Part shown: positions 1 through 48,802 of the stretch, piece after piece | How positions within the stretch are numbered: the first letter of the stretch is position 1 | How the letters are laid out: each line of letters opens with the position of its first letter | From: a virus | Virus record (IMG/VR): IMGVR_UViG_3300047357_001427 | Coordinates: 6,923 to 70,922 of that record | Reading direction: 5' to 3' (one strand) | DNA: 64,000 nucleotides | The notes under the pieces: generated by a model | Seen by the model: the letters and a program-made list of their open reading frames with translations, nothing else | Told to the model about the DNA's origin: nothing | The model's database searches: none | Made by a program: the position numbers and the translations under genes

Positions 1-1218
1 ACAATCATCAAGCAACTAAAGCGTATTCAAACTGCAAACTATGGTTTTACCATCAGTAGGCAAGACGTTAATCAATTCGGTCATTTGGCACGTCTTGATT
101 CTGTAGTTATTGAAGCTCCTACTGTTAATTTAGACTTCAGTTATTATCTTTTAGATGGATACAATGAAAGAATGATTGAGTTCATTACAAATGGTACAAC
201 CAACACTTTAAGTGGAGGGTTCTCACCTGAGCTTTATCAAGCAGGAAGTAACTTCTTTATCTTGACAATGCCAGAAGCTGGAGACGCAGTAAACGGAGAC
301 GTTAACGCAAGCGCAGCAGGTAATGATGATAAAAAGTCTGTTATTTCTTTAGGAAACGGTTATCTTACCGACTATAGCGTTGATATATCTGTGGGAGCAA
401 TTCCAACAGCAAGCGTTACAGTTGAGGGAATGAATATCAAAAGTGATATTGGTGAAACCGGAAACGACTTGCCAGCAATCAAAATGACCGACGGAAGCTT
501 TATGAGTAATGCGTGGGACAAGAATGCTGCAGGAGAAAGAACTCCAAAAGCTAATGGATGTACTGGATTATACTCTCTTCCAGCTGCAGAAAGTGGTTAT
601 GCAGGATGTGGCGATGTAGCGGCACTTAGGCCAGGAGATGTTGTTCTTGATCTTCAAGACGCAGGTTTAATCTCTAAACAGGTTAGTGGTTTGAATGTTT
701 CTACTCCAACTATTGGAAGCGCGCACGTTCAATCTGTTAGTATTAATATTCCTATGGCTAGAACAACTCTTCAGCGACTTGGTTCTACTTTTGGGTTCTC
801 TAAAACTCTTGATGTGCCAATCAATATAACAATGTCAGTTAGTGCTACGCTTTCAGACCTTAAGGAAGGCAACATGGCCGACTTACTTTGTGGTTGCGAT
901 AGAATCAACGCAACAGTCAAGATGATGGATCCTGAGTGCGTTGAGTGTGACACAAAAGATGGGCCTGTTGCTATGATTTTCGAATTAAAAGGAGCACGTC
1001 TTGAATCCGAAAACTTCACAAGCACTATCGGAGACAACAAGTCAGTTGACTTGACCTTTATCGCTCAGATCGCAGGAGCAGACGACCCTGATAATGGATT
1101 GTTTATTTTTGGAAAAGAATCTACTGAAGGTAATTTTGGATTACCGCCAGCATGGACCGGAGTCGGAGGTGTTGAAAATATTCCAGCAGCGAACGAACTC
1201 ATGGGGTACAGAGCATAA
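1..1218 (+). CDS. Putative major tail tube protein (5'-partial), two tandem tube-like domains
   Basis: Frame is open from base 1 (TIIKQLKRIQTANYGFTISRQDVNQFGHLARLD...), so the true start lies upstream of the window. Internal duplication (RIQTANYGFTISRQDVNQFG vs HVQSVSINIPMARTTLQRLG). Lies just upstream of the TMP and is followed by a hairpin terminator. Confidence 0.7.
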   Translation, partial: TIIKQLKRIQTANYGFTISRQDVNQFGHLARLDSVVIEAPTVNLDFSYYLLDGYNERMIEFITNGTTNTLSGGFSPELYQAGSNFFILTMPEAGDAVNGDVNASAAGNDDKKSVISLGNGYLTDYSVDISVGAIPTASVTVEGMNIKSDIGETGNDLPAIKMTDGSFMSNAWDKNAAGERTPKANGCTGLYSLPAAESGYAGCGDVAALRPGDVVLDLQDAGLISKQVSGLNVSTPTIGSAHVQSVSINIPMARTTLQRLGSTFGFSKTLDVPINITMSVSATLSDLKEGNMADLLCGCDRINATVKMMDPECVECDTKDGPVAMIFELKGARLESENFTSTIGDNKSVDLTFIAQIAGADDPDNGLFIFGKESTEGNFGLPPAWTGVGGVENIPAANELMGYRA

Positions 1219-1241
1219 AATAAATCTCATACTTTGAATAA

Positions 1242-1280
1242 AAATACACCTCAGTCATTGACTGGGGTGTATTTATTTAT
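1242..1280 (+). terminator. Intrinsic terminator-like hairpin after the tube gene
   Basis: AAATACACCTCAGTCA-T-TGACTGGGGTGTATTT inverted repeat (one G:U pair) followed by ATTTAT. Confidence 0.65.
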
Positions 1281-2879
1281 ATGTCCGGTAAAAGAAATGC
1301 AATCAAATACAATTCAGTCGGAATATTTCTAACTGATTCTCGGCAAGCTAAATCTGGCTCTGATTTATTGTATTTTTTTAATAGGGTTCAATCGGCAAGT
1401 GTTTCTGTTGATGTAAGTAGGCAGGACATACAGCACATCGGGGGCGAAGATTTTCTGGATAGGAAAATAATTTCAGAGCCAAGCACTAAATTAAGTTTGG
1501 AGTATCTGCTTACAGATGGATACGAAGAGAGTCTTCTTGGCTTAAATATTCTGAGCAAGGGCGACGAAATGCCATCGTCAACTCTTTGCTGGAGGGAGGA
1601 TTTCAATGGTAATTTGATTTTGCTTGAGAATGAAGGTGTCGATTACCTTCCAGCCTCTCAGTTGTTTGAAGATTCTTTGCCTGGCTGTTACACGCCTAGG
1701 GATGTCAGGTTTTCATCAAACACACAAGCTGCTCAATTTTTTGAAAAAAATGGAGAAAGTATTAAGCCTACGGAGACTAGTGCAGAAAATTACAAGGCGA
1801 ACCAGGGCAAAAGCGCTTATTACGATTTAAAGGAAGACAAGACTATATTGATGGCTGTTGGGGCGGAGCCTTTTGATTTGACTGGTTACGAGAATAGGAA
1901 GAATCAATACTCAGGCGTTGACGTTATTGGTATAGGTAATTGCTACATAACTGATTATTCTATATCGGCAGGCGTTGGGGAGTTCCCTAAAGCTTCAGTT
2001 TCTTATGCCGCTTCGAATTTAAGACATTCCTGTAATGGCTCCGGCTACGGCGGACACTACTGGCTGGACAATGTAAATGAGGTAGCTGTACTTTTAACTC
2101 AATTAAATACGTTTATTGAATTGCAGAATGGTCAAAATATTGGGCTTGGGTCGAGTGAGCAGAAATTCTATAAAGCCGGAGTGCAAAACCCGTCTTTGAA
2201 TTTGGAAAACAAGGGTTCCGATTTAACTGGCCCAACAATAGAGAGACATGGAGAGGAGATAGATTTAGGCACCGGTATTGAGTTTAACCCTAAAATGTAC
2301 AAATCTCCCGTTATGGCAATTGCTCCAGGAGGCATAAATGTTAATTTAAAAAACCTTAATGTGGGCGGACCAATACTTTCGGGAAAGAACGAAGGGACAT
2401 GTATAGAGGGTTCCGCGAATATACAAAGCTTTAATATAAACCTACCATTTGGGAGGGAGGATTTGTATGGCTTTGAGTCAATGCATGTTTACGGAAGAAA
2501 AATGAAATACCCGCAGATTGGGAGCGTGTCATTTTCTTTGCTCGCTAGCGCTTTTAATAGCGGAGATTTTAGGAAAATATTCTGCGAAGATGAGGATTAC
2601 GAGATAGAAATTAACTTAAATAATCATTGTGATTATTTTTGCTCTGCATCTTCAGAGCATGAGACGTATGTTAAGTACATTATTAATAATGCTAGATTCG
2701 AGAGTTATTCTTTTAGTGAATCTATAGGCTCAATAGCTACAGTGGATTGTAGTTTTAGTTTTGGGGTGAGCCCTAATAATGGATTCTTTATGAGTGGGTC
2801 TTTTGAAGATTATTATATAGCAGTACAACAAGGCATGGCACTGCAACTCGAAGGCGGTCAGCTTGTGGTAGATCAATAA
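1281..2879 (+). CDS. Tail tube protein paralog with insertions
   Basis: Collinear blocks with ORF 1-1218: RVQSASVSVDVSRQDIQHIG, GIGNCYITDYSISAGVGEFPKASV, ANIQSFNINLP, NARFESYSFSESIG. Confidence 0.7.
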   Translation: MSGKRNAIKYNSVGIFLTDSRQAKSGSDLLYFFNRVQSASVSVDVSRQDIQHIGGEDFLDRKIISEPSTKLSLEYLLTDGYEESLLGLNILSKGDEMPSSTLCWREDFNGNLILLENEGVDYLPASQLFEDSLPGCYTPRDVRFSSNTQAAQFFEKNGESIKPTETSAENYKANQGKSAYYDLKEDKTILMAVGAEPFDLTGYENRKNQYSGVDVIGIGNCYITDYSISAGVGEFPKASVSYAASNLRHSCNGSGYGGHYWLDNVNEVAVLLTQLNTFIELQNGQNIGLGSSEQKFYKAGVQNPSLNLENKGSDLTGPTIERHGEEIDLGTGIEFNPKMYKSPVMAIAPGGINVNLKNLNVGGPILSGKNEGTCIEGSANIQSFNINLPFGREDLYGFESMHVYGRKMKYPQIGSVSFSLLASAFNSGDFRKIFCEDEDYEIEINLNNHCDYFCSASSEHETYVKYIINNARFESYSFSESIGSIATVDCSFSFGVSPNNGFFMSGSFEDYYIAVQQGMALQLEGGQLVVDQ

Positions 2880-2952
2880 ATATCAATATGTTATTTTAGG
2901 TGTACATATAGATGGTTATTAGTATAATCAATAAATAAAGGTATAAGGTAAT

Positions 2953-5900
2953 ATGGTAGGAATGAGGGCAGATGTAACGCTTAATGTTAATACTTCTAAG
3001 GCTAAGAGAAGTATGGATCGCGCTGCTGCGGAGATAAATAGATCCATAAATGGAGTAAGTAAAAAACAAATTTCATTCAATGTTAATGGAAAAAGCTTTA
3101 CTCAGCCTCTTGGTAGAATAACTGCATCCGCAAATGAATTTACAAAATCATTAGAAGCATCTAATGCTCGAGTTATTGCGTTCGGTGCTTCGGTAGGAAT
3201 AATCAACGGAATATCTGAAGCGTTCAAGGCTTTGGTTGTGGAGACTGTAAAATTTGAAAAAGTATTACAGGATATAAATGTTATAGTTGGAGCTTCTGCG
3301 GGAAAACTACAAGAATTTGGGGATGGACTATTTGATGTAGCAAGAAATACAGCTCAAGCTTTTACAGTTTCTGCCGAAGCTGCTCTTGAGTTTTCTAGAC
3401 AAGGTCTCACCATGGAGGAAACCTTAAGAAGAACTAATGATGCTTTGATTTTGACGCGATTAACTGGGTTGGACGCAGCGTCTGCCGTATCTGGTTTAAC
3501 TGCGGCTGTTAATGCATTCGGTGATGCTGGGTTATCAACCACAGATATTATTGATAAATTGGCGGCTGTTGACGTTAAATTCGCAGTAAGCTCTGAGGAT
3601 TTAATAAAGGCTTTAGAAAGAACTGGGGCTGTTGCTATCGACGCAGGTGTTGAGATTGACAGTCTAATTGGTTTAGTGACAGCACTGCAGCAAACAACTG
3701 CTCGAGGGGGCGCAGTTATTGGTAATGGATTAAAAACAATTTTCACAAGAATACAAAGACCCGAATCAATAAGACAATTAGAAGAAATAGGCATCGCCGT
3801 AAAGAATTTATCTGGATCCATATTGCCCGCAGACAAGATAATGATAAACATGGCTAAATCATTTGACAATTTAAGCCAGTCGCAAAAATCTAATATTGTT
3901 CAATTTTCAGCGGGAATATTTCAAGCCAATGTTTTTAGGGCAGCATTGAGGGATTTAGGTAAAGAGCAAAGTATTCAAGCGCAGGCCACTGAAATAGCAG
4001 GAAATGCGGCTGGAGATGCGGCGCAAAAGAATGAAATGCTAAACAAGACGATGGCAGCAATGGCATCGCAAACGACTACATCTATTCAAGAACTCGCAGA
4101 GATACTTGGATCGATTGGTTTGTCTCCGGATATTGATTTCTTTTTATCGTCAATAAAGGATGGTATTGATGGAATAAAAAACACCCTAGGAGGAGGAGAA
4201 GACGAAGGTAGCACTTTTGCTAAGGGGTTAGTAAAGGGCATAGGTAATGTAATAACTGGACCTGCAGCTATAGCTTTTGGAGCTATTTTTATAAAACTTT
4301 TCGTTAATATTGCTAAGTTTGCTAGAACCTCATTGAAGGATGTTCTAGGCATAGTTAATGAAAAAGACAAAATAAGAGCAATGGAGGAGTCGATACTTAA
4401 AGCTCTTGGCGAAAATGTAAAACTACAGGAAGGGCTAAGCAATCTAGAAGACGACAGAAAAGCTCAAGAAATGTTTATATTAGGAATAATAGAAAAGCAA
4501 AACAGCGCAATGAGCGAGCAGGTTGATCTTGCTGCGAGGCTAGCCAAGCCACTGGTTAGGGCTGGAATTAATCCTGATTTTTCAAAAAATGAAGCATCTG
4601 GAATGGTTCCAGTTGCGGCATCGGGAATGATACCCGAATCTTCTAAGAAGAAAGAAAGACAAGGGGCCGCCAAGGGTGGTTACGCAGCAGGAGCTATAGA
4701 CTCAATGAACGTAAAAGGAGTCGGCACTGTTGTTTATAATAAAGCCGAAAAGGTTAAACAATTCCCTGGGATGAGTCAGCCCGCAATCATGCCCCCGAAA
4801 GAAAGCAGGGCAGGAAAGGGATACAAGGATGCTTTTGCTGGGCAGCACGGATTTGATCCATATGCTAGCGGCGGATTTGTTCCCAACTTTGCAGCAATGA
4901 GTGGTAGTAAATTAATGCTCGATCCTTCGTCGACTCAGTTGAGCGCTAATCCTGAAAGCGTTAAGGGGTCTAGAAATTTGGCTAAAAGTTATGCGGAGCT
5001 AGAAGCAACCGGCCAGCCAATCAGCGTGGAAGCCACAACAAAGCAACTTTTATCAAATAGCGGGGGAAGCCATTCTAAGAAAGTCAAAGAGGTTATAAGG
5101 TACCTGCAGGACGAGGGTGGAATCGAAAGCATAGAGCGTAAATTCAAGCTAAAGAAACTGCCCAAAAGGGGGAAAAGAACGGACGATCAAGCTGAGGCAG
5201 ATGTACTAAAAGCAGAGGGCGGAAAATATTTTAATACTGGAGGAAGGTCTGGCGATCCAACTTTTCCTGTTGATTTGGTTGGGTTAGGTATGAATCCAAT
5301 CGAAGTTAAATCTGGAGAATGGAAGCTTCCAAATGTACTGTTAAAAAGCTTGCGTCTTTATAGCGATGACGGATTGATGCGTTTTGCAGAAAGCCAAGGG
5401 GCTACCCAGGAAATGATTAACGAAGCTAGAAATGAAAAATTTAAAAAAGGAGCAAATCTATTAACCAAAAAAGGCTTAATAGGTAAGGATGCTAGTTCTG
5501 AGCAGACTCATCAAGCTTTGCTGGCCCATAGGATGTCTGAAGGTTTGGTTCCTAATTTTGCTATAGAACCCTGGAGCCAGCGTTACAGAAGAAACAAAGG
5601 TAAAGAATTTAATACTTCTGAGGAAATTAATAAAGCTTACGGTGTAAAAGACTTGGGTGTTTCATTAAATCAGTATAACGTAAGAAGAGATTTGAGCGAA
5701 CAAGAAATACAAGAAATAAAAGATCAAAGAGCGGCAACAACTTCAAGGGCAGGGCAAACTTCTTATGTAAACATTTTCAAAAACTTAAGGGCTGGAGAAT
5801 ACAAAGACAGAGCTGATCTGGCCGACAAAACAAAAAGAGTCTCTAATATCGTTGAGCAGCTTATTACTAAAAGCGAAACAACATCAAAAAAAGCTTCAAG

Positions 5901-8900
5901 AAAAGAAATTGGTGGCGGCAAAAATTTTGCAGATTTTCAGCAACTATTAACAGATCTTCCGGGCGGAGAAGCAGGTGGGTCTGAACTCCTGGAAAATAGT
6001 AGAAAAAGAGGTAAAATATTTGAAGAAATATTATCGGATCTTGGTGGGGTCAAGTTTGAGCAAAACCCAGACGCCATGGACTTTTCTAGAAAGAAGGAAA
6101 GGCTTCTTCGGGTTCCCGAAAAGACTGCGGATGCTATAGGTTTGGATAATTATGAAACTTATGGCGATGCCCATGCGGGACCAGGGCATGGAGTAAGATT
6201 AATGAGGGATAAGATTATAAGGGAGGTGCACAGCGAAGGATTGCTAGAAGGCCTACTTTCAAACAGGCAAGTGCATCTACCAGGCGATGACTTTCCCGAT
6301 ATAGTGAATACTGGTAGGGACTCAGAAAGAGAAAAAGAAATTACCCTTGGAAATCTGATGAAAAAAGGAGGATTAAAATCAGTAAAAGCAAGAAAAGCAA
6401 TAAATGAATCCGTAAAGGCTAATCATGGTTATACATATGATGAATTATTAGTCGAACCTAAAAACAAGAAGAAACCCACAGAGGAAGAAAAGAAAAAACT
6501 AGAATTAAAAAAACAGTTAGATAAAAAAATAATATCTTTTAATTATGTTACAGATGATGTAGATCTAGGAGCAATAGACAAAAGAACAAAAACAGGAAGG
6601 AAAGTTAAAGAATTAGAAGGTCTTAAATCAGGAAATGTTTCGGGCGGATTAATACCAAACTTCGCAGACCCAAGAACTCGCAGCCAAAAAATACAAGACA
6701 CATTGGCCGACCCATCGAACAAGGGAATAAAGTTCAACAAGCCACCATCTCCCGCCAACATCACCTCGGCTCAAATAAGCAGGCATCTAGATATCCCAAT
6801 AGGAAAAACCCCAGAAACTCAGCCAAGCGATGAGGATATAAAAAACGCAATCAAGGCGGTTTGCCAAACAAGAGAGAAACTTCAACTTCCCGGTTACGAG
6901 AATTTAAAATCAATCGACAAAACAAAAATCCTCAAGAAATACAAAAAACAGGCGGGAGAGGGAGAGTATTACGGAAATAAAGATTTGAGTGCGGCGAGAG
7001 GTTTTGTGCCTAATTTTGCAAATGTGCACCTGTATAGAGGCCAAAAGAACAAAACCCTAGATACTCCAGACATCTCAGAAAACTTGCCCAGCTTTGCTTC
7101 TGCTAGAACACCTAATGATGTAGTTGAGATAGTTCAGGACTTCGTGAAGAGACATGTTAGTGGTGATTTAGCTGGATACAGAAACAAGCAGGGGACTTCT
7201 GGGGAAAAGAAAGCTTCGGGCGCGAACTCTTACAGCACGTCTCCGCAAGTTGCAGATAACTTTGCTAATAGTATTGATCTAACAAGCAATGACATGTCAC
7301 CGGGGCAAGTTTTCAAAAAAACAGTTCCTTCAAAAAACATATTTAATAAAGCCAAACTACTAAAAATACTCAACAAAGGATCTGATCCGAAGAGCGGCAA
7401 CTATCCAAGTGTCGAGAAGTTTAAGAAAGAAATCGCATCAGGAGCAGTAAAGAACTGGGCGCAGAAAAACGGGGGCATGTACCTCAATATATCTGGCGTT
7501 AATAATGATGATTCATCCGGCAAAAGGTACGGCCAAAGCATGAAGCAGATAGTGCCTCTCGCTGACGTTGGTTATAATGATGACGGAACAAGACAAATCC
7601 ACCAAGGAGAAAGAGAAGTAATTCAATTATTTAATAATGGATTAATTCCTAATTTTTCAAAAGTAGAGCGAGTTCAAAAATCACAAAAAAGAAGAGTAAA
7701 AGAACAAGTAACAGAAGAAGATAAAGATTTAGCTCATAATATTTTTGATTATTTAAAAACAAATATAAGTAACCTATCCTCAAGGTTTAGGTTTAATAGA
7801 TCTACTGTATCATTTGGTGGAAATCCAGAAGATTACGAAAAAGTATTTAATCATTCATCATCAAGAAAGAACAAAGAAAACCTAATTGAAATAGCTAAAT
7901 CTGAAATGAAAATGAATCGAATCTTGAAAGGTTTCATGATTCCTCATAATGAAGGTGTTGCCACTGCAAGAGGAAAGCATAAAGCTCCCCGTGATCCATT
8001 TTTAGATGGAGCTATGCACGGCGGCCTTGTTCCTAATTTTGCAGATCCATTAAGTGCGGCGATATCAAGAGAGCGAGCAGCAGGAGTTCCTCAGGCCAGA
8101 ATCAGGGTAGAGAAAAGTTCTCAATTAAAAAGTGCTCAAAACCCAATGGGGCTCGCAGTAACTAATACTAGAGATGAGCCGGCCGGAGTACAGCAGGGAA
8201 TAAGGCGCGCCAAGACTATGGGTATAGACCCAAAGAAACATGGAGCGAGCAAGGGCATGGTGCCGAACTTTGCCGCGCCACAAATTCCAGACGCAATTTT
8301 AAATAATGCTAAAAATGAATTGTCTCAAATGTCTAAAGCTTTCACCGATAGCTTTAGTGAGTTTTCAAAAATAGCCAGCAAGTTTGGTAAGGAAGGTAAA
8401 GAGACATTAGCTGAGATAGCCAGCTTTGATATTTCTAAAGACTTTGAAGGAATCAAGGATTTATTAAATGAAAAAATGGAAAGAACAGAGGCACAAATAA
8501 ATTCCATAACAGAAAAAACAGGCAAGCTTTCCAAAGGTGAACAAACTAGGTTGGGCGAACTAAAGAAGGCTAAGTCATCAGGAGAAGCGCTATTAAAATC
8601 TACAGAAGAAAAGTCGCAAAAATCAAAAGCAGTAAAAAACTTATCATCCAGTGAGCCCGAAGCTCAGAAGACACAATTAATCAAGTCCGAAAACGCAATG
8701 ATAAAAAAGATGCTTACCGCAAGAGGTACAGATCTTAAATCTCTAAAAGAAGCAACTAAGGCTAGTCAAGATTTCAGAATAGCTTTGGATGAATCCGCAA
8801 AATCTGCTGAGGAATCAGACGATGACGGAGGTGGGCTTCAGCGTTTGTTTTATCTTCAGTCGGCGATTAGCTTAGTTAATGGTCAATTTGAAACGCTGGC

Positions 8901-11900
8901 TGAAGGCGCATCTGGGCTAACCAAGACCTTTGCACAGGGAATGTTGGCGATAAGCAATGTAACAGCTTCTTTTATTCAGCAAAAAGAACTAGTTTCTGAA
9001 GGAATGAATATGGCTGGAGTGAAAAGGAATGAGTCCTTCTCGATTGGTCAGGCGTTTAATCCAGAGGCTAGAGCCGCCAGAAGAAGTGCTGCAGCAGCAT
9101 CGGATGCAGGATCCAGGGGCAGCGGAGTAGGCAGGATGGGAGGATTGATGAGAAACCTTTCAGGAGTAGGAAGAATGTTTGGACGATTCTTGCCAGTTAT
9201 TGGTCAGTTATATACTGGTTTCACTGTAGTAAATGAAGCATTCAAGATGTTTAATATAGGTGAGATGTTCGGCCTAGAGAAAGGCTCTGGGGTTATGGAT
9301 CTTCTCTCGAGCCAAGGAGAAAGGGCCGCAAAGAAACTAGAAAAATTAGGAGAAAGTACCGAGAAATTGCAAGGAGCTCTTGAGTCGTTAAATAGCCAAA
9401 CAGAAAATAGAGAAAAAGTTACAGATCTTGAAATTTTAGGATCAAGAAGAACTCAGAAGCAGGAGCTGGAACTTCAGCAATTAAAACTAAAGGGGCTAGA
9501 CATAGATATAAAAGCTCAGGACGCTTTATCTGGTCTTTTGGACGAAAATCTAGTAGGAACAAAAGTATCAAAAAGATTTATCGAAGAACTGTCGAAAGGC
9601 ACAAACAGCAACGAAGACTACGTAAAAGTAATAGAAAGAGTAATAAAGGCGCAAAAGAGCCAGGCAGCATTTCTTAGTGGGTCCAAAAGTTTTGGAGACT
9701 TGATAGACAAGAAGCTTGACAAATTTAATCCGGATAGTGACGACATCAAGCTGCTCCAAGGAGCGTCAAAAGTTAGAGGATCCCAGATAGGAATGGGCTT
9801 TTCTTCTGCAGCTGCAGGTGGCGAGGATATGGATGTTAAAGATAGACTATCTATATTGAGCAAAAATATAGCTGCCCTTGAAAGAGAATCTTCCACTGTA
9901 AGTTTTAGAAGCATGAGTGATGTGACCAAACTAACCGATAGGTTAGCAAAGAACCTGCAGGGTACAGAAGATTTTGATGCAGAAATGATGGCTTCTCAGA
10001 TAAATTCTTTTATTAAAAACATAGATGAATCAATTGATAATCCATCTGGCTTAGATCCTAGAGAGACAAAAGCAGTAAACGCTGGAATGAAGCAAATGGT
10101 TATTCAGCTAAACAAGCTCAAGAAAAACCTAGAAGGAGAATCAGATAGGCAGCAAGAGGCTCAATTAAAAAAAGAATATGTAACTGCATATAAAAATATC
10201 ATATTTAATATCGAACAATTTAGAAAAAACGAAGCTCACTTAACCAAGTTATCTCTTGCGTCGTTAGCCCATCAAAATAAATTAAATTCATCCCAACAAA
10301 GTTTACTGCTTGAGTATAATGCGATAGGTAAAGAAGCCGCAATCTCTTCCGACTTTGCGAGAAAAAGAAATGCAATGGAGGCAAAATTTATTGCAGACAA
10401 GCAGGGTGTTGAGATGAAAACTATTGAATCTTTGAATAAATTAAGGGATACATATTTTAATACTGATCAATTAGCTCAACAATTCAAAAAAGATGGAAAA
10501 CAAGCGGCAGACGCAGTACAAGCCCTCAAGGATAATATCAAAGAAGGAGTAAGCAATGCAGACTTTGCGGGAATCGGCAAGAGCATGAATCTGAATCCAG
10601 AAGTAATGGCAAAAGTGACCGAAGCATTCGAGCAAACATCCGCAGAAACTAAAAACGCAACATCATCATTAGAAGTCATCTCCTCATTGCTTAATAAATT
10701 TGGAAAAGCTACAGATAGTTCGACTGCTTCTGCCCTCTTACTGGCTTTGCACGAAAAGGGCTTAGTCACAATAACCGATGAGCATTTAAATCTATTAAGA
10801 TCCGGCTTATTAAGTAGAGAAAGACAATTAGAATTATTAAATACAGGCAATAAAGAAGCACAACAATTACTAAAGCTAGAAGAAGAACATAAATTCATAA
10901 AAGAAAAAACAGTAACAGGCGCAGCTAAATTATATAAAATATTACAAGCAAGAGGCCGCGAAGAAAAACACGTATTAGATTCCGTAAAAGGCGAAGCTGC
11001 AACCCTTGCGGTGCTGAATGATTTTTATAAAAAAGATGTTTCCATATTAGCTAAAAGCTCAGAAGCTATGGAGTTAGGTTTCCAAAAGCAAGAAGAGAAA
11101 AATAGAACAGACGCAATATCCGCAGTGCATTCCCTTAGGATGCTCGAAGCTCAAACTGGTTCGCTTAAAAATTCAGAAAATTCATTGATAATTTTAGAGG
11201 CAAAACTTAAGAGCGAAACAGAAAATGCAAAATTAGCTCTACAGGAATCTGAGTTCAGGTTAGATTACTTGAAAGATCAGTCTAAGAGGGAAGAATTAGT
11301 TGGACGCCAGCTCGCAAAGGAAATGGCTGATTTACAAACTAGTAATTTATTGGCGGCCGAAAAGAATCTTCAATTATCAAAGACTGGAGAACTGAGAAAG
11401 CTTGTTGAGGAACAGCTCAATGCGACGCTTCATTCTTCTAGGCTGGAAGCTTTAACGGCAGCAGAAAATGCTTTATTATTGACTGGAAAAACAAAGCAAG
11501 TAAAATTAATACAAGAAGCCAACGAATTACAAGAAGCCTCGAATAAGCTGACCGAGTTGCAGAATGCTGTAACAAAAGCTGGGGTTAGCGATAAGACTTT
11601 ACGCATGACTACCACTGCAGACATCGGGATAGAAAAAGCTAATTCCATATTAGAAACAAGGACTGCAGGCATGAAAGCTACGGTTGAGCCTAATGCTGAC
11701 AATATGCTTGCTTATGCAAACTCTCTTGAGCAAACCAACAAACTGCTTGGAAATGGAAGTAGGGCGATAGATAGGTTTAGGGCAAGAATGGCCGAAATGA
11801 ATGTTGAGGCTGAGAATCTTGGTGCGGATTTAGTTAATATAGGAATAGACAACGCAAGAAGCGGCCTAACTCAGATGTTTAAGGATATTGGTTCAGGAGC

Positions 11901-14475
11901 CAAGGGCGCATCTGAGGCATGGGCTGACTTTGGTCTTGGGCTAGCTAACGAATTGCTTGATCGACTAATGCAAAACAATGTAGATAAAATAATCAAGAAT
12001 TTAACATTTGCATTTACTGGAGAGAGTGGAGAGTCTGACGAGATTAAAATAGCCAAAGAGACCGCCCACCTGGTTGGAATAAACGAGGGAATAATATCTT
12101 CGAATAAAGATTTAACATCAGCAGTAAGGGCTGCGTCAGAAGCATTAAAAAATAAAATACAATTAAGCCAATCTCCAGATGAGCAGTTTAACGATGTTAT
12201 CGCGCCCAATGCAGTAAAGACGCCAGATACGTTTGTAAATGTCCAAGAGAATGCCGCTAAAATACAGGCCGATTTGGAGACATCAAACAAGATAGATTTG
12301 GAAGTATCCTCGTTTATAGAAAATTTATACAAACCAATTGCTCCTCTAGGCGAACTTGCAACCGCAGCAACAGAAGCGGCTGCGGCGATTAATAAAGAGC
12401 CAGCAACAACCAGAGACTTGTTTGAAGCCCAAGATAAGGTGAAAGATTTCAAGGCTAACGAACCACTTCTTAAAAAAGCGGACCCAGAAGATTCGATAGA
12501 TCAACTTTTTAATCGAAACGAATATCAGTCCCAAAGATCAAAGATGGAAAATGAGCGGCCCGACTTAATATCCAGCAAGTATGCAGCGCAAAAAAAAGCA
12601 GAAGGAATTAAAGCTCAAATATCAGAAATAAACTCAATAAGTAACCCCACTAGAGAGCAGCACGAAAAACGAAAACAGTTAAACAATGTATTAGAAGAAT
12701 CAAACCAAGAATTTACTAAATTCTCAAACAAACTCAAGAAATCAGACCAAGACCTAGCTAGTTTGGATGCCAAATTCAAGACAGCAACCACAAGTTTAGC
12801 GGCACTCGAAGCCAAGGTGGCAAGCATTACCCAAGCGTTAAATATACCGAATTCAGTGGGTCCTGAGCCAGCATTAACTAATGATGGGCGAATGGATGTG
12901 CAAGCTCTGCTCAGCAAGCATTCAGGCGGCAAAATACAACACTTCGCAAAAGGCGGATTCGTAGACGGCCCAGCGGGGGTAGATAAAGTTCCTGCAATGC
13001 TAACAGCAGGAGAGTATGTCGTACCTAAAGACAAAGTATCTCAATTAAAGCAAGCAGGCGGAATGATTCAACACTTCAGGGATGGAACGGGCAGCAGGGG
13101 AGCTCAAAAGAAAGAAGACAGCGGGACAAAAGAGAAAAAAGAAAAAAGTAGATTCCAATCCGGCATGGAGGGTGTAGCTAATATAGTAGTAATGAATGAA
13201 GTTTCTCGTGCCGTAGCTGATTCGTTAGATGGAAAAACTGATTCTCCTCCAACCTTTGACGAAAATAAATTCAAAAACCTTGGTTTGAGGTCTGATGTAA
13301 ACATAAAAAGGGGTGACCCTAGATTAAGCTCTAAATTTTTGTCAAGAGATCCGGTTATGCAGCAGTATAAGGACTTTCTCTTGGAGAAAGCCGCTTACGA
13401 CGTACAAAAGAAAAATGAAAAATTTGAAAAAAGAAAAGCGACTTTGGCTACAGTAGTAGGAGCTGTTCAGAGTATGGCTATTGCTGGGGTTACAGAGATT
13501 GCCGCTCCATTTATACAGGGGGCCGTTACAGGGCTTGAAAATACATATGGAAAGTACGCTCCCACAGATAGCGCGAAAGCTTATAGGGCCGCAAGAGCAC
13601 AAGACCCTAAGCTGAATGTTAATTACAGAGATGTAAAGAATAGCATGAAAAATAACAAACCTCTTGTTGTCGGAGAAAGCTCGTATTTTCCGGCGAGAAC
13701 AAAGGAGGGTGGTTTTACATGGGACAAAGCTAGGGTTTCAAACGGCAAAATGCAGGGCCCCAAACAATTCCCCTCGCATAGGTTTCCCGCCTTCAACGAA
13801 GACGCAGCGAGAGAGGAAATTTTCGGTAAAAAAATTATAAAAAAAGCTTCAGGAGGTTCCGTACCAGCAATGTTGACGGCGGGGGAAGGTTTTATACCCG
13901 AAAAAACAGCCAAGAGAATTGGGTATGAAAACTTAAACACAATGAACAGAACGGGTAACCTACCAACAGTTCAGGGGGCGCCAGGAATAGATCAAGTCGG
14001 ACCAGTAGGTTTGACAGAAGGAGACTTTATAATCAAGAAAAATTCTACAGATAAGCTTCTTAGGGAAAATCCATCAATGATGAAATTTGCCCTACAGAAC
14101 CCAGAAGGATTCAAAAAAGGGGAGAGAGGTTATTACGAAGGAGGTGTGGTTGGCAACTCTTCACCGGCAACAGTAGCACCACCCGCAAAACCAAGATCAA
14201 CAAACAGAATACAGCAGCAAAATCCAGCAGAGATGCTGAACAGTATAGCCGCCCCAAAAACACAAACCCCTCAAGTAGAGGCGCAAGGTAAAACCAGCGA
14301 TGTAACGAATAATATAAATGTAAATGTCACCATAGATCAATCGGGGCAAGAAAAGGTTTCTTCGGATAGTTCTGGTGGCTCATACGAGGAGGAGCAGAAT
14401 TTATCTTTAAAAATAAAAACAGCAGTGCTGGATGTGATCAGGCAAGAAAAAAGAATTGGAGGGGAGCTTAACTAA
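2953..14475 (+). CDS. Tape measure protein (3840 aa) with inserted cargo domains
   Basis: TP901-type N-terminal TMP core (FSRQG, DKLAAVD, GNGLKTIFTRI), long Ala/Lys/Glu helical tracts, C-terminal FAKGG..VPAMLTAGE motifs, and position between tube and tail-tip genes. Confidence 0.92.
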   Translation: MVGMRADVTLNVNTSKAKRSMDRAAAEINRSINGVSKKQISFNVNGKSFTQPLGRITASANEFTKSLEASNARVIAFGASVGIINGISEAFKALVVETVKFEKVLQDINVIVGASAGKLQEFGDGLFDVARNTAQAFTVSAEAALEFSRQGLTMEETLRRTNDALILTRLTGLDAASAVSGLTAAVNAFGDAGLSTTDIIDKLAAVDVKFAVSSEDLIKALERTGAVAIDAGVEIDSLIGLVTALQQTTARGGAVIGNGLKTIFTRIQRPESIRQLEEIGIAVKNLSGSILPADKIMINMAKSFDNLSQSQKSNIVQFSAGIFQANVFRAALRDLGKEQSIQAQATEIAGNAAGDAAQKNEMLNKTMAAMASQTTTSIQELAEILGSIGLSPDIDFFLSSIKDGIDGIKNTLGGGEDEGSTFAKGLVKGIGNVITGPAAIAFGAIFIKLFVNIAKFARTSLKDVLGIVNEKDKIRAMEESILKALGENVKLQEGLSNLEDDRKAQEMFILGIIEKQNSAMSEQVDLAARLAKPLVRAGINPDFSKNEASGMVPVAASGMIPESSKKKERQGAAKGGYAAGAIDSMNVKGVGTVVYNKAEKVKQFPGMSQPAIMPPKESRAGKGYKDAFAGQHGFDPYASGGFVPNFAAMSGSKLMLDPSSTQLSANPESVKGSRNLAKSYAELEATGQPISVEATTKQLLSNSGGSHSKKVKEVIRYLQDEGGIESIERKFKLKKLPKRGKRTDDQAEADVLKAEGGKYFNTGGRSGDPTFPVDLVGLGMNPIEVKSGEWKLPNVLLKSLRLYSDDGLMRFAESQGATQEMINEARNEKFKKGANLLTKKGLIGKDASSEQTHQALLAHRMSEGLVPNFAIEPWSQRYRRNKGKEFNTSEEINKAYGVKDLGVSLNQYNVRRDLSEQEIQEIKDQRAATTSRAGQTSYVNIFKNLRAGEYKDRADLADKTKRVSNIVEQLITKSETTSKKASRKEIGGGKNFADFQQLLTDLPGGEAGGSELLENSRKRGKIFEEILSDLGGVKFEQNPDAMDFSRKKERLLRVPEKTADAIGLDNYETYGDAHAGPGHGVRLMRDKIIREVHSEGLLEGLLSNRQVHLPGDDFPDIVNTGRDSEREKEITLGNLMKKGGLKSVKARKAINESVKANHGYTYDELLVEPKNKKKPTEEEKKKLELKKQLDKKIISFNYVTDDVDLGAIDKRTKTGRKVKELEGLKSGNVSGGLIPNFADPRTRSQKIQDTLADPSNKGIKFNKPPSPANITSAQISRHLDIPIGKTPETQPSDEDIKNAIKAVCQTREKLQLPGYENLKSIDKTKILKKYKKQAGEGEYYGNKDLSAARGFVPNFANVHLYRGQKNKTLDTPDISENLPSFASARTPNDVVEIVQDFVKRHVSGDLAGYRNKQGTSGEKKASGANSYSTSPQVADNFANSIDLTSNDMSPGQVFKKTVPSKNIFNKAKLLKILNKGSDPKSGNYPSVEKFKKEIASGAVKNWAQKNGGMYLNISGVNNDDSSGKRYGQSMKQIVPLADVGYNDDGTRQIHQGEREVIQLFNNGLIPNFSKVERVQKSQKRRVKEQVTEEDKDLAHNIFDYLKTNISNLSSRFRFNRSTVSFGGNPEDYEKVFNHSSSRKNKENLIEIAKSEMKMNRILKGFMIPHNEGVATARGKHKAPRDPFLDGAMHGGLVPNFADPLSAAISRERAAGVPQARIRVEKSSQLKSAQNPMGLAVTNTRDEPAGVQQGIRRAKTMGIDPKKHGASKGMVPNFAAPQIPDAILNNAKNELSQMSKAFTDSFSEFSKIASKFGKEGKETLAEIASFDISKDFEGIKDLLNEKMERTEAQINSITEKTGKLSKGEQTRLGELKKAKSSGEALLKSTEEKSQKSKAVKNLSSSEPEAQKTQLIKSENAMIKKMLTARGTDLKSLKEATKASQDFRIALDESAKSAEESDDDGGGLQRLFYLQSAISLVNGQFETLAEGASGLTKTFAQGMLAISNVTASFIQQKELVSEGMNMAGVKRNESFSIGQAFNPEARAARRSAAAASDAGSRGSGVGRMGGLMRNLSGVGRMFGRFLPVIGQLYTGFTVVNEAFKMFNIGEMFGLEKGSGVMDLLSSQGERAAKKLEKLGESTEKLQGALESLNSQTENREKVTDLEILGSRRTQKQELELQQLKLKGLDIDIKAQDALSGLLDENLVGTKVSKRFIEELSKGTNSNEDYVKVIERVIKAQKSQAAFLSGSKSFGDLIDKKLDKFNPDSDDIKLLQGASKVRGSQIGMGFSSAAAGGEDMDVKDRLSILSKNIAALERESSTVSFRSMSDVTKLTDRLAKNLQGTEDFDAEMMASQINSFIKNIDESIDNPSGLDPRETKAVNAGMKQMVIQLNKLKKNLEGESDRQQEAQLKKEYVTAYKNIIFNIEQFRKNEAHLTKLSLASLAHQNKLNSSQQSLLLEYNAIGKEAAISSDFARKRNAMEAKFIADKQGVEMKTIESLNKLRDTYFNTDQLAQQFKKDGKQAADAVQALKDNIKEGVSNADFAGIGKSMNLNPEVMAKVTEAFEQTSAETKNATSSLEVISSLLNKFGKATDSSTASALLLALHEKGLVTITDEHLNLLRSGLLSRERQLELLNTGNKEAQQLLKLEEEHKFIKEKTVTGAAKLYKILQARGREEKHVLDSVKGEAATLAVLNDFYKKDVSILAKSSEAMELGFQKQEEKNRTDAISAVHSLRMLEAQTGSLKNSENSLIILEAKLKSETENAKLALQESEFRLDYLKDQSKREELVGRQLAKEMADLQTSNLLAAEKNLQLSKTGELRKLVEEQLNATLHSSRLEALTAAENALLLTGKTKQVKLIQEANELQEASNKLTELQNAVTKAGVSDKTLRMTTTADIGIEKANSILETRTAGMKATVEPNADNMLAYANSLEQTNKLLGNGSRAIDRFRARMAEMNVEAENLGADLVNIGIDNARSGLTQMFKDIGSGAKGASEAWADFGLGLANELLDRLMQNNVDKIIKNLTFAFTGESGESDEIKIAKETAHLVGINEGIISSNKDLTSAVRAASEALKNKIQLSQSPDEQFNDVIAPNAVKTPDTFVNVQENAAKIQADLETSNKIDLEVSSFIENLYKPIAPLGELATAATEAAAAINKEPATTRDLFEAQDKVKDFKANEPLLKKADPEDSIDQLFNRNEYQSQRSKMENERPDLISSKYAAQKKAEGIKAQISEINSISNPTREQHEKRKQLNNVLEESNQEFTKFSNKLKKSDQDLASLDAKFKTATTSLAALEAKVASITQALNIPNSVGPEPALTNDGRMDVQALLSKHSGGKIQHFAKGGFVDGPAGVDKVPAMLTAGEYVVPKDKVSQLKQAGGMIQHFRDGTGSRGAQKKEDSGTKEKKEKSRFQSGMEGVANIVVMNEVSRAVADSLDGKTDSPPTFDENKFKNLGLRSDVNIKRGDPRLSSKFLSRDPVMQQYKDFLLEKAAYDVQKKNEKFEKRKATLATVVGAVQSMAIAGVTEIAAPFIQGAVTGLENTYGKYAPTDSAKAYRAARAQDPKLNVNYRDVKNSMKNNKPLVVGESSYFPARTKEGGFTWDKARVSNGKMQGPKQFPSHRFPAFNEDAAREEIFGKKIIKKASGGSVPAMLTAGEGFIPEKTAKRIGYENLNTMNRTGNLPTVQGAPGIDQVGPVGLTEGDFIIKKNSTDKLLRENPSMMKFALQNPEGFKKGERGYYEGGVVGNSSPATVAPPAKPRSTNRIQQQNPAEMLNSIAAPKTQTPQVEAQGKTSDVTNNINVNVTIDQSGQEKVSSDSSGGSYEEEQNLSLKIKTAVLDVIRQEKRIGGELN
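4873..8274 (+). repeat. Seven dispersed G-[FLM]-[VI]-P-N-F-[AS] peptide motifs in the TMP
   Basis: Motifs start at nt 4873, 5542, 6646, 7000, 7639, 8023 and 8254 (aa 641, 864, 1232, 1350, 1563, 1691, 1768). Confidence 0.95.
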
Positions 14476-15506: not shown

Positions 15507-16702
15507 GTAAGCCTTTTTATAGATATGAGGACGTTCCTGTGTTGCTAGCGACCAAAGGTAGTGAACCAATTATGGTTTTTGCTAGTTCTGCTGGACTTTC
15601 TGCAAGCCAACCGATAGAGGCTAAGAAATTCCTAGAAGACCATAATATATCTTTTGCATTACAGACTGGGGATGTGCATTTTACAGGAGCTTATGAATCT
15701 GGCTTTTTGATGGGTCCAAGAAATGGCCCGGGCGTAAGAATGTCTGAATCGGTTGAGACTATACCAAGTGGTTACAAGATAACATACCCAGGAGGACAAT
15801 CTTTATATTTAACCGAAGATTTATCTGCTGGAGATTACTATATTAAGGTGAGGTCCACCGGTGATACATTATTGGATTATGATAGGGATATAGAATACGG
15901 AGAAGTTGATGTTTTAAGAAATTATGCGGCATCAAATGTTGTAAGGGGTGCGTTGAATATTTCTTACTATATGAATACTGGAAACCTTCATACGTTTGCA
16001 AACTTGACTGGATTATTAGATCCAAATATTTACCCACAAATTAATGAAGAGAAAATTACAGGATCATTTGGTGATTATATTTTTGAAGACGCATACTTGA
16101 GGGAGTTAAATTTTTCCGCACAACCTTTTCAACCAATAGAATCGAGACTAAGCATAGATATATATGGAAAAATGGAATACCGTGAGGGCTTGTCGCAGTC
16201 AATACTTGACGATTATGGATGCTTGAAAGAGAATCAATTTAGCATACCTCACGCAGTCAACACTAAACTTGTTGGCGCCTCCGGAATTGGCATAAATTAC
16301 CCGCTTAATTTTGATTATACTATATCGTCGCAAAGATCTCCAGAGGTGCCAGTCCCATTAAGTGGTAAAATTAGCGAAGATGGTGAGGTGCCAGTTCGGG
16401 TCACAAAAGATAATATAGATATCACTATAAAAATTCAAGGAGAGAAGCTTGATCCATTTCTAAAAATATCAGGACAAAGAGCTAACGTCACAGTTGAGCT
16501 TTCTGATATTGGATTCAATAAGGAATTTACGGACAATAACGAAGGGTTGATGAATAAATTTTCTCTAGCCGGAAGTTTGATTTATCCTGATATGCCATCT
16601 CAAGAGCTAAGGGATTATGGAGTTGTGGAGGAGGATAATTTAAGCGTTTCAGAGGGTGGCTTTTTAAAGGGCACTGCAACAATAAAACAGTCTTACAGGT
16701 AA
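15503..16702 (+). CDS. Putative tail-tip protein, distant tube-fold paralog
   Basis: FEDAYLRELNFSAQPFQPIESRLSIDIYG and LNFDYTISSQRSP resemble tube-domain strands. ATGA overlap with the previous gene. Confidence 0.45.
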   Translation: MSKPFYRYEDVPVLLATKGSEPIMVFASSAGLSASQPIEAKKFLEDHNISFALQTGDVHFTGAYESGFLMGPRNGPGVRMSESVETIPSGYKITYPGGQSLYLTEDLSAGDYYIKVRSTGDTLLDYDRDIEYGEVDVLRNYAASNVVRGALNISYYMNTGNLHTFANLTGLLDPNIYPQINEEKITGSFGDYIFEDAYLRELNFSAQPFQPIESRLSIDIYGKMEYREGLSQSILDDYGCLKENQFSIPHAVNTKLVGASGIGINYPLNFDYTISSQRSPEVPVPLSGKISEDGEVPVRVTKDNIDITIKIQGEKLDPFLKISGQRANVTVELSDIGFNKEFTDNNEGLMNKFSLAGSLIYPDMPSQELRDYGVVEEDNLSVSEGGFLKGTATIKQSYR

Positions 16703-19700
16703 TGGATATACCGGCTTCATTATGGAATACTGCAAGACAGTACAAGAAGGATGATATAGTTCAAGTTGCAAATTTGGCTCTTCCTGGTGATGAATATAGG
16801 GATAAAAATGGAGATCTTGTTCAGCCGATAACCACTCATGATTATCTTCAATTACAAACAGATCAAGAGTATGTAATATCCGCAGATGTCTTGGCCGAGG
16901 TGGATGTAATAGATAGCCAGGAAATTACTATAGGTACATATTTTAGCATTAATAATAGCCTGAATTATTCTATAGGATGCATGGTTAAAAAATTAACTGA
17001 ATCGTCTTCAACTATAGACGATCAAAAGACATATATTACTCAGTCATCTGGGGGAGTTGTTGATTTAGAAAACTCTATAGGCATAGGGGTAGGGATTAAG
17101 TTCCTTGACGCCCTTGGAGAAAGAATAAAAGTTTCGAATCTTAGGGATAGTCACAGGTTAATGGCTGGCAGCGAACTTAATGATCGTGAATATTATAATG
17201 TATTGTTAGATATAGAAGCAAGTTCAATACCTGATGGCGCAGTTGGCGCATATTTATTTGTATTTGTTTATGGTATAAAATCTGGCGGATTTATGTTTAA
17301 GAAACCTTTTGCTTCTGATTTGGGTAGGTTTTTTTATTGCGTCGAGGATCATTCCTCTGGCTTTGGTAACGAACCAAATGCAGAACTGGGCTCAAAATAT
17401 TGGACTCAAGATTTCATATGGAGGCCTTCTTATGGTTCGAAGTCAGATTTTGTAGCCATCAATGATGAACTAAAAATGGGAGAGGGTAAAGATTATGTAA
17501 CCAGCATGGCCATAAATTCCTTGCCGATGGAGCTAACTTTAAACTTTAATAATAGAACCGATGCAGAAGCTAAAGCTATAGTTCATTTTTTACAAGAAAA
17601 GTCATTTGCTTATAATTCAATTTTTAGTTTAGATTATAAAGGTAATAGATTATTGTCAAGTGATGTAGCTTCTTTCAATTTTAAATATAGTTATCCCTAT
17701 AAGGATGATTTAAAGTATACTTGTACTGAATTTGATCATTCGATAGTTTATAGAAATAAAAATAATATCAAGGCTAAATTCGTATGCAACACTGAGAGCA
17801 CTTTGGCTAGCTTCGAGAGTCACGCTGGATACAATAAAAGAGTTGACGCTTTGATACCTATATTTATAGACGAAGTAACTCACTTTAAAAAAGGAGAGCA
17901 AATAAGCTTAAATACATTCACCCTGGAGGGGGATGATGGAGCAAAGAAAATAGAGCCAAGTAATATATTAAAAGTAAAAAGATATGACGAGCCCGGAGAG
18001 TCGATAAAAGGTTTGATAATATGCAAAGAGCCCGAAAAGTTCGAAGAAGGAGATTGTGTTTTTGTAAAAGTAAAAGATCCAGAAAACTCTATATATAATG
18101 TAGGAAAAACAAAAATATATAAAAAAATATCTGAAACTGAATTTGTTTTTCACCCGTTATTGGAAGAGGGGTCATATGAAGACGTGGTAAATTTAAAGGC
18201 TACATCTTCGGCTGGAGAAAACACTTCAGTGCAATGGTTCGATGAGGATATCGGTAACCAGTTGAAAATAAGAGAGGAAGAGTTAGAGACTATCGATTTA
18301 GCTGATCAAGTTTGGCGCCCAACTGACATCAATAAAATAACGCCAAGAGAAACAACTCTGGAGCAAGATTATGGAGCTCAATATTTTGAGGAAAACGCAC
18401 TTGAGCAAATAACGATAAGAGGTCAAGAATTTATTGTTTTTGACAACGTATCAATAGTCAGAATGCCTACATGCCCTGAGGATTGCGCAGATAGTAAGGT
18501 TTTGATGCCGGAGGGAGTGTCTATCATACCTGCAACTAACGAAGATCCAGCAACTGGAGAAAGTAGGAAAAGACAAGTATACTTAAAAAACTACAGAAGG
18601 CTACAAATAGACTCAGAGATCACTGCAGATACTCAAACTGTTAAGTTTACTCCTATGGAGAGTTTTACACTGGAGGCAAAGGATGACTTCTGGCTGCTTA
18701 TTTCTGCCGTTCAAGGCAGGAGTAGTTTATACCTAAAAGATCCAGACGAAATTCCAAAATATCCTTGGCTAGAAGTTAGAACCTTTGACCACAAGCCAAG
18801 TTTAAATTTCAACATAAACCACACTCCTGAAAACATACAAACAAGTTTTCTTAAATACTACAATAAGAAATATAAGAAAGAATTAAATTCTAATCTATCT
18901 ACATTTAATGTAGTTTTTGATAAAAGGAGCGACCAGGAGGCTGCCGAAATATTGCAGTTCCTTGAGAGCCATCTTGGGCACAAGAAATTTAGGTTTCAAA
19001 TGCCTAGGCCATATTTAAAAGATACAAGCGCGACGACTTCTCCGAGTAGACCTTTCATATCAACTTTTTATTGTCCTAGCTGGGGGCACGATATAGTTTA
19101 CAAGAATAATCATAGTATTACAGCAACCTTCGTAGAGTCCACAACCTCAACAGAAGAAGATTTGCGTAATGTTTTTGGCATAGGCAGGGAGGAGCAGAAG
19201 CCTTGCTATGGAGCTGAACTTTTTGACCCTGTTACTAAATTTGAATTATGCACCTTTTCTTCGATATTGCAGGCCACAAATGGAATTGGATTTGAAGTAG
19301 TAGAAGGTGAGAACGAGCAATTAATTGGAAAATCTAAAGCTGTTGATTTAGTTTTTATAGTTGATACGACGGGCAGTATGACCAATCAGAGTATGGAGAC
19401 GAATGGAGTCACCAAAACAAAGTATCAGGTATGTGTAGATATACTTTTAAAAATGATAACAGCTCACGATAGCTATATCATGCCTGGGACCGAATCATAT
19501 AATGGTGAATTTAACACTCCAGCATTAAGCTTTGGGTCAAATAGTGGTGATAACACTATACCTCCATGGCCAGCAGATAATGAAGTCTTGAATAGCTTGT
19601 TACCTAAACTTTACGATCCGCTAAAGGAATTGCGAGATTCTCTTGAGAATGAGGGTTATAATTTAAAAAACTTAGATAGATTTAAAATAAAAATAGACCA

Positions 19701-48787: not shown

Positions 48788-48802
48788 GTGTAAAACATAA
48801 TT

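Follow-up and report, generated by a model that had tools for sequence, protein, structure and literature searches.

How does the ruler of a phage tail come to carry, in the middle of its chain, a row of unrelated domains parted by one and the same short peptide? The question is posed by a 64,000-nucleotide stretch of viral DNA (hereafter the window; positions 6,923 to 70,922 of IMG/VR record IMGVR_UViG_3300047357_001427), on whose plus strand a single open reading frame (ORF) at positions 2953-14475 encodes a protein of 3840 amino acids (aa). An earlier note, prepared from the sequence by a model without database searches, took the product for a tape measure protein (TMP) and proposed that repeated GxxPNF(A) linkers divide part of it into cassettes of cargo delivered to the host. 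Using sequence profile searches, structure models and a collection of related TMPs, we find the reading of this region as a cassette array to be well supported, and suggest that the tail ruler of this lineage probably doubles as a carrier that takes a variable set of proteins into the host.

A tape measure protein with a recurrent peptide motif

Sequence comparisons identify the ORF as a TP901-type TMP of a siphophage with a lambda-like tail tip, in agreement with the earlier assignment. A Pfam search with the whole protein recovered the PhageMin_Tail domain (PF10145; e-value 9.3e-23, 81.6 bits against a cut-off of 33.2 bits) at aa 132-316 (3346-3900, plus strand), within a conserved N-terminal region that extends from aa 1 to about 560. 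The N-terminal ~400 residues match PHROG tape-measure families with e-values down to 7.6e-42, and the ORFs 3' of the gene resemble the lambda tail-tip genes L (phrog_18), K (phrog_30) and I-J (phrog_32 and phrog_31). Towards the other end of the protein, aa 1775-3300 (8275-12852, plus strand) are poor in proline (1.4%) and rich in A, E, L, K and Q (46.7% together), with a longest proline-free run of 363 residues, the frequency of proline being threefold higher in the array; this region is probably the helical ruler, a helicity suggested by composition alone. It is followed by a Pro/Gly-rich C-terminal region (aa 3301-3840; 12853-14472, plus strand), recognizable by its composition and by conserved blocks in the consensus of alignment A1. 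The C-terminal region contains repeated G-G-x-V...V-P-A-M-L-T-A-G-E-x-V-x-P blocks, which share a G-G-[FL]-V start with the motif described next.

Upstream of the ruler the pattern G-x-[VI]-P-N-F occurs seven times, at aa 641, 864, 1232, 1350, 1563, 1691 and 1768, exactly reproducing the positions first noted. These copies account for all seven PNF tripeptides of the protein, as against 0.002 copies of the pattern expected from composition, and reading the window in all six frames yields 12 further PNF tripeptides, none of them preceded by G-x-[VI]. In order, the copies read GFVPNFA (4873-4893), GLVPNFA (5542-5562), GLIPNFA (6646-6666), GFVPNFA (7000-7020), GLIPNFS (7639-7659), GLVPNFA (8023-8043) and GMVPNFA (8254-8274), all on the plus strand. 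A degenerate eighth copy, GMIPES at aa 558-563 (4624-4641, plus strand), aligns with an intact G-x-I-P-N-F in the relatives L070, P0020 and L042. Two structure models were obtained from shallow alignments, one of cassette 4 alone and one of cassettes 1 and 2 with colinear rows. All five copies that they include (motif 1; motif 2 at model residues 231-241; motif 3 at 594-607; motif 4 at 1-9; motif 5 at 199-226) have a pLDDT below 50 and fall outside the folded parts, and thus appear in the models as low-confidence, exposed linkers between folded units. Cassette 4 has no other linker, since its first catalytic strand begins three residues past P-N-F-A. At the DNA level the seven copies make use of four Pro codons, both Asn codons and both Phe codons, and as a 25-nucleotide repeat they are 64-84% identical to the first copy, bearing out the view that the linkers are constant as peptide and variable at synonymous sites.

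To place this protein among its relatives we assembled TMPs from two sources. A protein search with aa 600-1800 yielded 97 giant TMPs of 2115-5299 aa, and a scan of IMG/VR with conserved N-terminal patterns matched at least 599 stretches, gave at least 555 confirmed relatives and supplied 80 loci that were kept; the IMG/VR set is the fairer sample because it was chosen without reference to array similarity. Removal of duplicates left 173 distinct TMPs. The residues following G-[LFYMVIH]-[VI]-P are NF in 824 of 1233 cases and NY in 180, and since NY joins NF at this place we redefined the motif as G-[LF]-[VI]-P-N-[FY], the initial scoring having used PNF only. Under that scoring the consensus of 407 distinct junction types has S/A at position -5 (64%), G at -3 (88%), L/F at -2 (71%) and V/I at -1 (91%), followed by P-N-F and by A at +3 (56%). 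No TMP among the 173 has fewer than two copies of [VILMT]-P-N-[FY] (median 6, maximum 13, 1125 in total), and a count of the motif gave 438 copies within TMP frames, while 1.2 Mb of flanking DNA, translated in six frames, contained none. By these counts the motif G-[LF]-[VI]-P-N-[FY]-A is family-wide and exclusive to the TMP. Among 337 motifs, codon usage at G and F shows no difference from the rest of the genes and differs at Pro (CCT 54% vs 36%), at Ala and, to a slight degree, at Asn (AAT 67% vs 73%, p = 0.009). As all 16 possible combinations of CCN-AAY-TTY are in use, the constraint acts on the peptide. The choice between F and Y is slightly over-dispersed among TMPs, with no clear trace of co-evolution with a partner.

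When the final cassette and the motifs on either side of it were turned into a profile and run against 1.84 billion proteins, 1092 representative clusters (50% identity) were recovered at e-values of 0.001 or below, 915 of them at 1e-10 or below. Among the best 150 of the 1092 clusters, 103 have representatives of at least 1800 aa with 3-24 motifs each, and the N-terminal TMP pattern is found in 89 of these 103. The most extreme arrays encountered are those of P0105 (5354 aa), with 24 copies of P-N-[FY], and of locus L094, where an open frame spanning the whole 12.6-kb locus (1-12639) has 20 PNF copies. In the relatives L005 and L008 the joint between cassettes 1 and 2 (TMP aa ~860-870) is degraded, reading PNY in the former and PSF in the latter.

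Cassettes are exchanged as whole units at the motif

The segments between successive motifs of the window protein are 216, 361, 111, 206, 121 and 70 aa long and belong to six different similarity families, confirming the six mutually unrelated segments (approximately 215, 360, 110, 205, 120 and 70 aa) previously delineated. Those that were modelled are mixed alpha/beta units, which answers the doubt, raised at the outset, that they might be a continuous helix. Two conserved modules bracket the variable part. Module A (aa 567-640; 4651-4872, plus strand), conserved in the A1 consensus, precedes motif 1 and the variable array, and cassette 6, or module Z (70 aa; aa 1698-1767; 8044-8253, plus strand), closes it. 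Module A is bounded by the motif on both sides in 66 of the 173 TMPs and is the first segment in 62 of these 66, the place of the preceding motif being taken in the window protein by the degenerate GMIPES; module Z is present in 156 and comes last in 151 of them.

We then grouped all segments of at least 25 aa by BLAST similarity (e-value 1e-4, 60% mutual coverage), whereby 925 segments collapsed into 143 families, of which 71 have a single member; the 173 TMPs combine these families in 119 distinct architectures. Segment lengths range from 57 to 379 aa (5th-95th percentile) and are nearly constant within a family. With segmentation by PNF only, which was also used for the breakpoint counts, 38 pairs of families were found in both orders. 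Where the same upstream cassette is followed by different downstream cassettes (1330 junction pairs), per-position identity stays at 45-89% as far as the motif and drops to 5-12% from the second residue beyond it; the reciprocal comparison of 3072 pairs gave the mirror image. These pair counts overstate the number of events, because related sequences are not independent. In seven close relatives the TMP without its array measures 2712-2723 aa and the array itself 782-1280 aa, the constancy of the former being suggestive of a length-setting backbone. The alignments thus establish that whole cassettes come and go, substitute for one another and change their order, the breakpoints lying on the motif, and the expectation that the number and identity of segments would vary among homologous TMPs while the flanks stay constant was borne out.

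The linkers had also been proposed to act as recombination joints. From these comparisons the motif is an in-frame joint of exchange, whatever its primary function, because it is uniform at every boundary, so that any in-frame swap there would give a working protein. This part of the proposal stands, whereas a purely DNA-level recombination signal is unlikely, given that the codons vary freely.

Besides wholesale exchange, cassettes are also replaced by divergent alleles. The backbone of the relative L001 is 91-97% identical to that of the window at the DNA level, while for cassette 2 the figures are only 83% (DNA) and 71% (protein); in L004 the identity of cassette 1 falls to 64%. In the comparison with L001 the ratio of nonsynonymous to synonymous substitution rates (dN/dS) is 0.01 for the N-terminal region (aa 1-640) and 0.07 for the first 400 residues past the array; among the cassettes it is 0.21 for the first, 0.84 for the second, 0.04 for the third and 0 for the sixth (dN = 0). 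Apart from cassette 2, therefore, the cassettes measured (dN/dS 0-0.21) appear to be under strong purifying selection.

Predicted activities of the cassettes

Searches with cassette sequences and profiles in Pfam, PHROGs and PDB yielded next to nothing. Conservation patterns within the families were examined as well. Cassette 4 (206 aa; 7021-7638, plus strand) has an arginine (R1362), an S-x-x-x-S (S1422/S1426) and an E-x-E (E1553-x-E1555) that are invariant in all 15 rows of alignment A8. They correspond to the R-S-E pattern, namely an Arg on strand 1, a Ser-x-Ser/Thr motif and a Glu-x-Glu. Fold matches to its model are weak and almost all ADP-ribosyltransferases (ARTs). By its catalytic signature and these fold matches cassette 4 looks like an ART of the R-S-E group, its activity being a prediction. 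It has no Pfam match at e-values up to 10 and no PDB sequence match, that is, no match to a curated ART profile, and an hhalign comparison with the ART-PolyVal cassette of the relative P0086 aligned only the motif and the first strand (probability 9%). The family occurs in 30 TMPs, next to 18 upstream and 13 downstream neighbor families.

In cassette 1 (216 aa; 4894-5541, plus strand) the residues D774, E784 and K786 are shared by every row of alignments A3 (13 of 13) and A10 (16 of 16), in the arrangement P-V-D-x9-E-V-K typical of PD-(D/E)xK nucleases. The 607-residue model of cassettes 1 and 2 presents cassette 1 as a mixed alpha/beta unit with pLDDT 45-64 in the D...ExK region; fold searches with this model were dominated by a helical part of cassette 2, and an Atlas search with cassette 1 gave a weak lead (0.82) to R.HinP1I of a restriction endonuclease family. 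We therefore regard cassette 1 as PD-(D/E)xK-like and as a putative nuclease. Of the earlier statement that at least two segments carry enzyme motifs, the part concerning cassette 4 holds, with its ART triad and ART-like fold matches, and the D...ExK residues of cassette 1 are conserved as claimed, its nuclease fold being unconfirmed.

Cassettes 2, 3 and 5 were matchless in the searches made. Cassette 2 (361 aa; 5563-6645, plus strand; family alignment A6) is the fast-evolving one noted above, and its window copy gave no Pfam, PDB or Atlas match; in the relative P0037, a CI-repressor helix-turn-helix (HTH) domain is recognized by Pfam within a segment of the same family. The family of cassette 3 (111 aa; 6667-6999, plus strand) comprises 56 segments and has 15 neighbor families upstream and 16 downstream; that of cassette 5 (121 aa; 7660-8022, plus strand; alignment A5) comprises 26 segments, with 11 and 6, respectively.

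Among the relatives, two cassettes contain Pfam domains enclosed by the motif: ART-PolyVal in P0086 (aa 647-809, flanked by motifs at 641 and 824) and SNase in P0037 (aa 2191-2288, flanked by motifs at 2158 and 2360). Representatives of 58 cassette families gave only seven weak, single-member Pfam matches, GNAT among them, and two PHROG matches, to a polynucleotide kinase and to the phosphoheptose-isomerase family; none of the 58 matched a lysozyme, a transglycosylase or an M23 domain, that is, a cell-wall hydrolase. Two shorter relatives bear precomputed VanY and GH19 labels. A word-based search for stand-alone homologs of the cassettes, which may miss distant relatives, found just 2 short fragments when run at near-equal length, and among shorter proteins 39 matches, almost all of them TMP fragments or short TMPs matching module Z.

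What the array and its motif might do

TMPs are expelled from the tail ahead of the DNA, as has been established for lambda- and T5-type phages. For this reason the array is best read as a polymorphic effector load, the delivery of the cassettes being a reasonable inference drawn solely from this known behavior. On the reading that we favor, a hypervariable array of independently folding cassettes would be held between modules A and Z of the ruler, each cassette bounded by the exposed peptide [AS]-x-G-[LF]-[VI]-P-N-[FY]-A. The array would leave the tail with the TMP, ahead of the DNA, and the cassettes would act as polymorphic host-directed effectors in host take-over or counter-defense. One conserved partner would read the motif, more likely in a processing step that frees the cassettes than as a docking point, and any swap made at the motif in frame would yield a working protein. 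Taken as a whole, this scheme of motif-bounded, swappable cassettes, a host-directed effector load and a motif read as a protein-level signal seems to us somewhat more probable than all others together. A physical difficulty is that several copies of folded domains of 8-40 kDa would have to fit into the lumen of the tail tube; the domains may travel unfolded or may have their place outside the measured part.

Given that the motif is the same beside 143 different families, it must presumably be read by one conserved partner. As to what that reading achieves, we tentatively favor a putative processing site, reasoning from the chemistry of proteases and autoproteolysis: the invariant Asn and the alternation of F and Y would suit a chymotrypsin-like P1 pocket or an Asn-driven self-cut, which we offer as a suggestion. 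The TMPs themselves have no conserved classical protease signature (HExxH in 8 of 173 and a GDSGG-like motif in 8 of 173, neither in the window protein), and the Pfam search with the whole window TMP revealed no peptidase family. Elsewhere in the window a papain-family cysteine peptidase with an acidic, repetitive C-terminal tail is encoded at 53639-54730 (plus strand; PF00112, e-value 1.2e-15), between the two genes for ribonucleotide reductase. We considered it as a universal protease for the motif and dropped it, since only one of five related records (four of them complete) has a homolog. A bolder form of the processing idea, to which we give a smaller chance, well below even, is that release takes place at the P-N-[FY] joints, by self-cleavage or by a specific cut, and that the ruler is a programmable polyprotein injector. 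Up to two dozen effector domains per chain, mostly uncharacterized, would then be loaded in the tail, ejected before the DNA and freed in the host, and any joint could accept new domains.

As a role for the motif itself, docking is nearly as likely as processing. The corresponding alternative for the whole array, which we hold to be the most serious rival though a rather doubtful one, is that the array remains uncut and that the motif docks or anchors every inter-domain junction to some conserved component of the virion, which might be the inner surface of the tube, an assembly chaperone or module A or Z; any action of the cassettes would then be that of a single ejection protein with its several domains still tethered. 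Such an anchor would be suited by the character of the motif as an exposed, short and hydrophobic peptide (pLDDT below 50 in all five modelled copies) that is strictly specific to the TMP, as it would by the two conserved modules bracketing the array, the lack of a conserved protease motif in the TMP and the syntenic set of upstream tail genes kept in 50-59 of 63 loci. Yet the irregular spacing of the motifs (57-379 aa) is at odds with a tube lattice, which is periodic, the analysis turned up no partner, and the interchange of F and Y suits a protease pocket equally well. Co-folding of the conserved 532-aa protein encoded just upstream of the TMP with module Z and its two motifs gave a score of 0.00, which speaks neither for nor against binding.

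That the cassettes are structural or envelope-penetrating inserts, or spacers of length, akin to the cell-wall-degrading motifs of other TMPs, we consider unlikely. Muralytic domains embedded in TMPs are well known, the SPbeta yomI product is annotated as a 'putative transglycosylase', and the VanY and GH19 labels on the two shorter relatives point the same way; but the cell-wall hydrolases are absent from the matches of all 58 family representatives, and the recognizable domains (ART, SNase, a weak GNAT, the PHROG polynucleotide kinase and HTH) have cytoplasmic targets. Moreover, the backbone length is fixed while the array differs by 500 aa among close relatives. Finally, selfish or neutral insertions in a permissive stretch of the TMP, with the motif as a remnant of the recombination or insertion mechanism, could account for the extreme turnover (119 architectures in 173 TMPs), the near-neutral dN/dS of cassette 2 and the modest codon bias at Pro and Ala, but are very improbable in view of a peptide conserved across all 16 codon combinations, the strong purifying selection on other cassettes and the invariant catalytic residues.

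Comparison with known multi-domain carriers

Several systems share one or another aspect of this organization. The MARTX proteins are secreted bacterial toxins with variable effector arrays that recombine between strains and are released at unstructured linkers by the toxin's own cysteine protease domain, which cuts after Leu. The TMPs resemble them in being large carriers with an array of exchangeable effector domains and unstructured inter-domain linkers, and differ in that the carrier is a phage tail ruler with no evident built-in protease and with a fixed linker motif of 7-9 residues. In polymorphic toxins, junction motifs such as VENN in CdiA and PxxxxDPxGL in Rhs mark a single junction with one C-terminal toxin and an adjacent immunity gene. 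There too, a short conserved peptide marks the border between conserved and variable parts and serves domain replacement; in the TMPs, by contrast, the junction recurs 2-24 times per ORF with cassettes on both sides, and there are no immunity ORFs between the cassettes, because these lie in one uninterrupted ORF. TMPs with enzymatic motifs are themselves known, for instance the mycobacteriophage TM4 protein with its Rpf-like motif and T5 pb2. Together with SPbeta YomI, as annotated, they likewise bear a non-ruler domain used at infection, but in them the extra domains number one or two, degrade the cell wall, and show neither bounding motifs nor turnover of cassettes.

The closest parallel in domain content is offered by the polyvalent proteins, in which 2-15 unrelated conflict-type domains, typically including ARTs, are combined in a polypeptide thought to enter the host with the DNA (PMC5512222). 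Their carriers are described as head-packaged or conjugation proteins, and Zn-peptidase domains within the chain are credited with the release (Iyer et al. 2017, PMC5512222). The likeness extends to the many unrelated domains in one phage polypeptide (six in the window), to ART-PolyVal and SNase as cassettes of P0086 and P0037, respectively, and to a proposed proteolytic release, putative in our case. The differences are that the TMP is the carrier here, that a universal inter-domain peptide motif is present here and none is described there, and that an embedded Zn-peptidase was not found in the TMP (HExxH is absent from the window protein); the terms 'tape measure', 'tape-measure' and 'TMP' do not occur in that text. 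In extracellular contractile injection systems (eCIS), lumen cargo is separate from the TMP and is loaded via an N-terminal signal and an AAA+ ATPase (bioRxiv 10.64898/2026.05.27.728243), whereas the cargo considered here would be part of the TMP chain. In the literature searched we came upon neither an account of the motif nor one of cassette arrays in TMPs. The array appears to follow the logic of polyvalent and polymorphic effectors, placed in the tail ruler and equipped with a universal, repeated joint.

Genomic context and distribution

Directly 5' of the TMP gene lie genes for two large proteins, one of 532 aa (1281-2879, plus strand) and one of 720 aa (contig positions 5978-8140), the latter pieced together from 5978-6988 of L098 and 1-1218 of the window. 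The slot just upstream of TMP genes is usually held by small assembly chaperones. Both proteins are without a Pfam or PHROG match, the searches having supplied no such names for the genes neighboring the TMP, and homologs of the 532-aa and 720-aa proteins are present in 50 and 59, respectively, of the 63 related loci with enough upstream sequence. Further downstream, the tail region includes a minor tail protein of 1645 aa (16702-21639, plus strand), whose phrog_14 match covers aa 691-820 only, and a fused protein of 1765 aa (25964-31261, plus strand), in which central fiber domains resembling those of J are combined with a lambda I-like N-terminus.

Outside the tail genes, the window encodes a class I ribonucleotide reductase, with an ATP-cone in the large subunit (50750-53218) and the small subunit at 55450-56463 (plus strand). 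A GDP-mannose 4,6-dehydratase and two NAD-dependent epimerase/dehydratase genes stand in a row at 46800-49714 (plus strand), and a weakly heptosyltransferase-like (GT9) gene lies at 34569-35747 (minus strand); by their similarities these look like a phage-borne sugar-nucleotide pathway.

The IMG/VR record behind the window is 70.9 kb long and rated 54% complete, and four related records rated 100% complete measure 138-214 kb. The GenBank phage collection contains no match to the array, and its matches to the N-terminal region are distant (175 records, all below 60% identity and with less than 80% of the query covered in each); judged by that collection, the lineage is hence uncultured. Relatives were found on 25 contigs of metagenome-assembled genomes, nine of them binned as Flavobacteriales, including one that is 98% identical to the N-terminal region of the window protein; as evidence for the host such binning is weak.

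Implications

If the reading favored here is true, tape measure proteins would be more than rulers and conduits, and phages would have a second route, beside head-packaged proteins, for pre-loading a changeable arsenal. The family in question is large, with 1092 representative clusters (50% identity) and at least 555 IMG/VR contigs. Its 143 cassette families, almost all of them unannotated, would provide a catalog of candidate domains for host take-over or counter-defense whose exact boundaries are given by nature, and a seven-residue joint tolerant of any neighbor would amount to a natural design rule for multi-domain delivery proteins. The array also raises a physical puzzle, namely how folded or unfolded domains might pass through a siphophage tail, and whether they count in the length of that tail.

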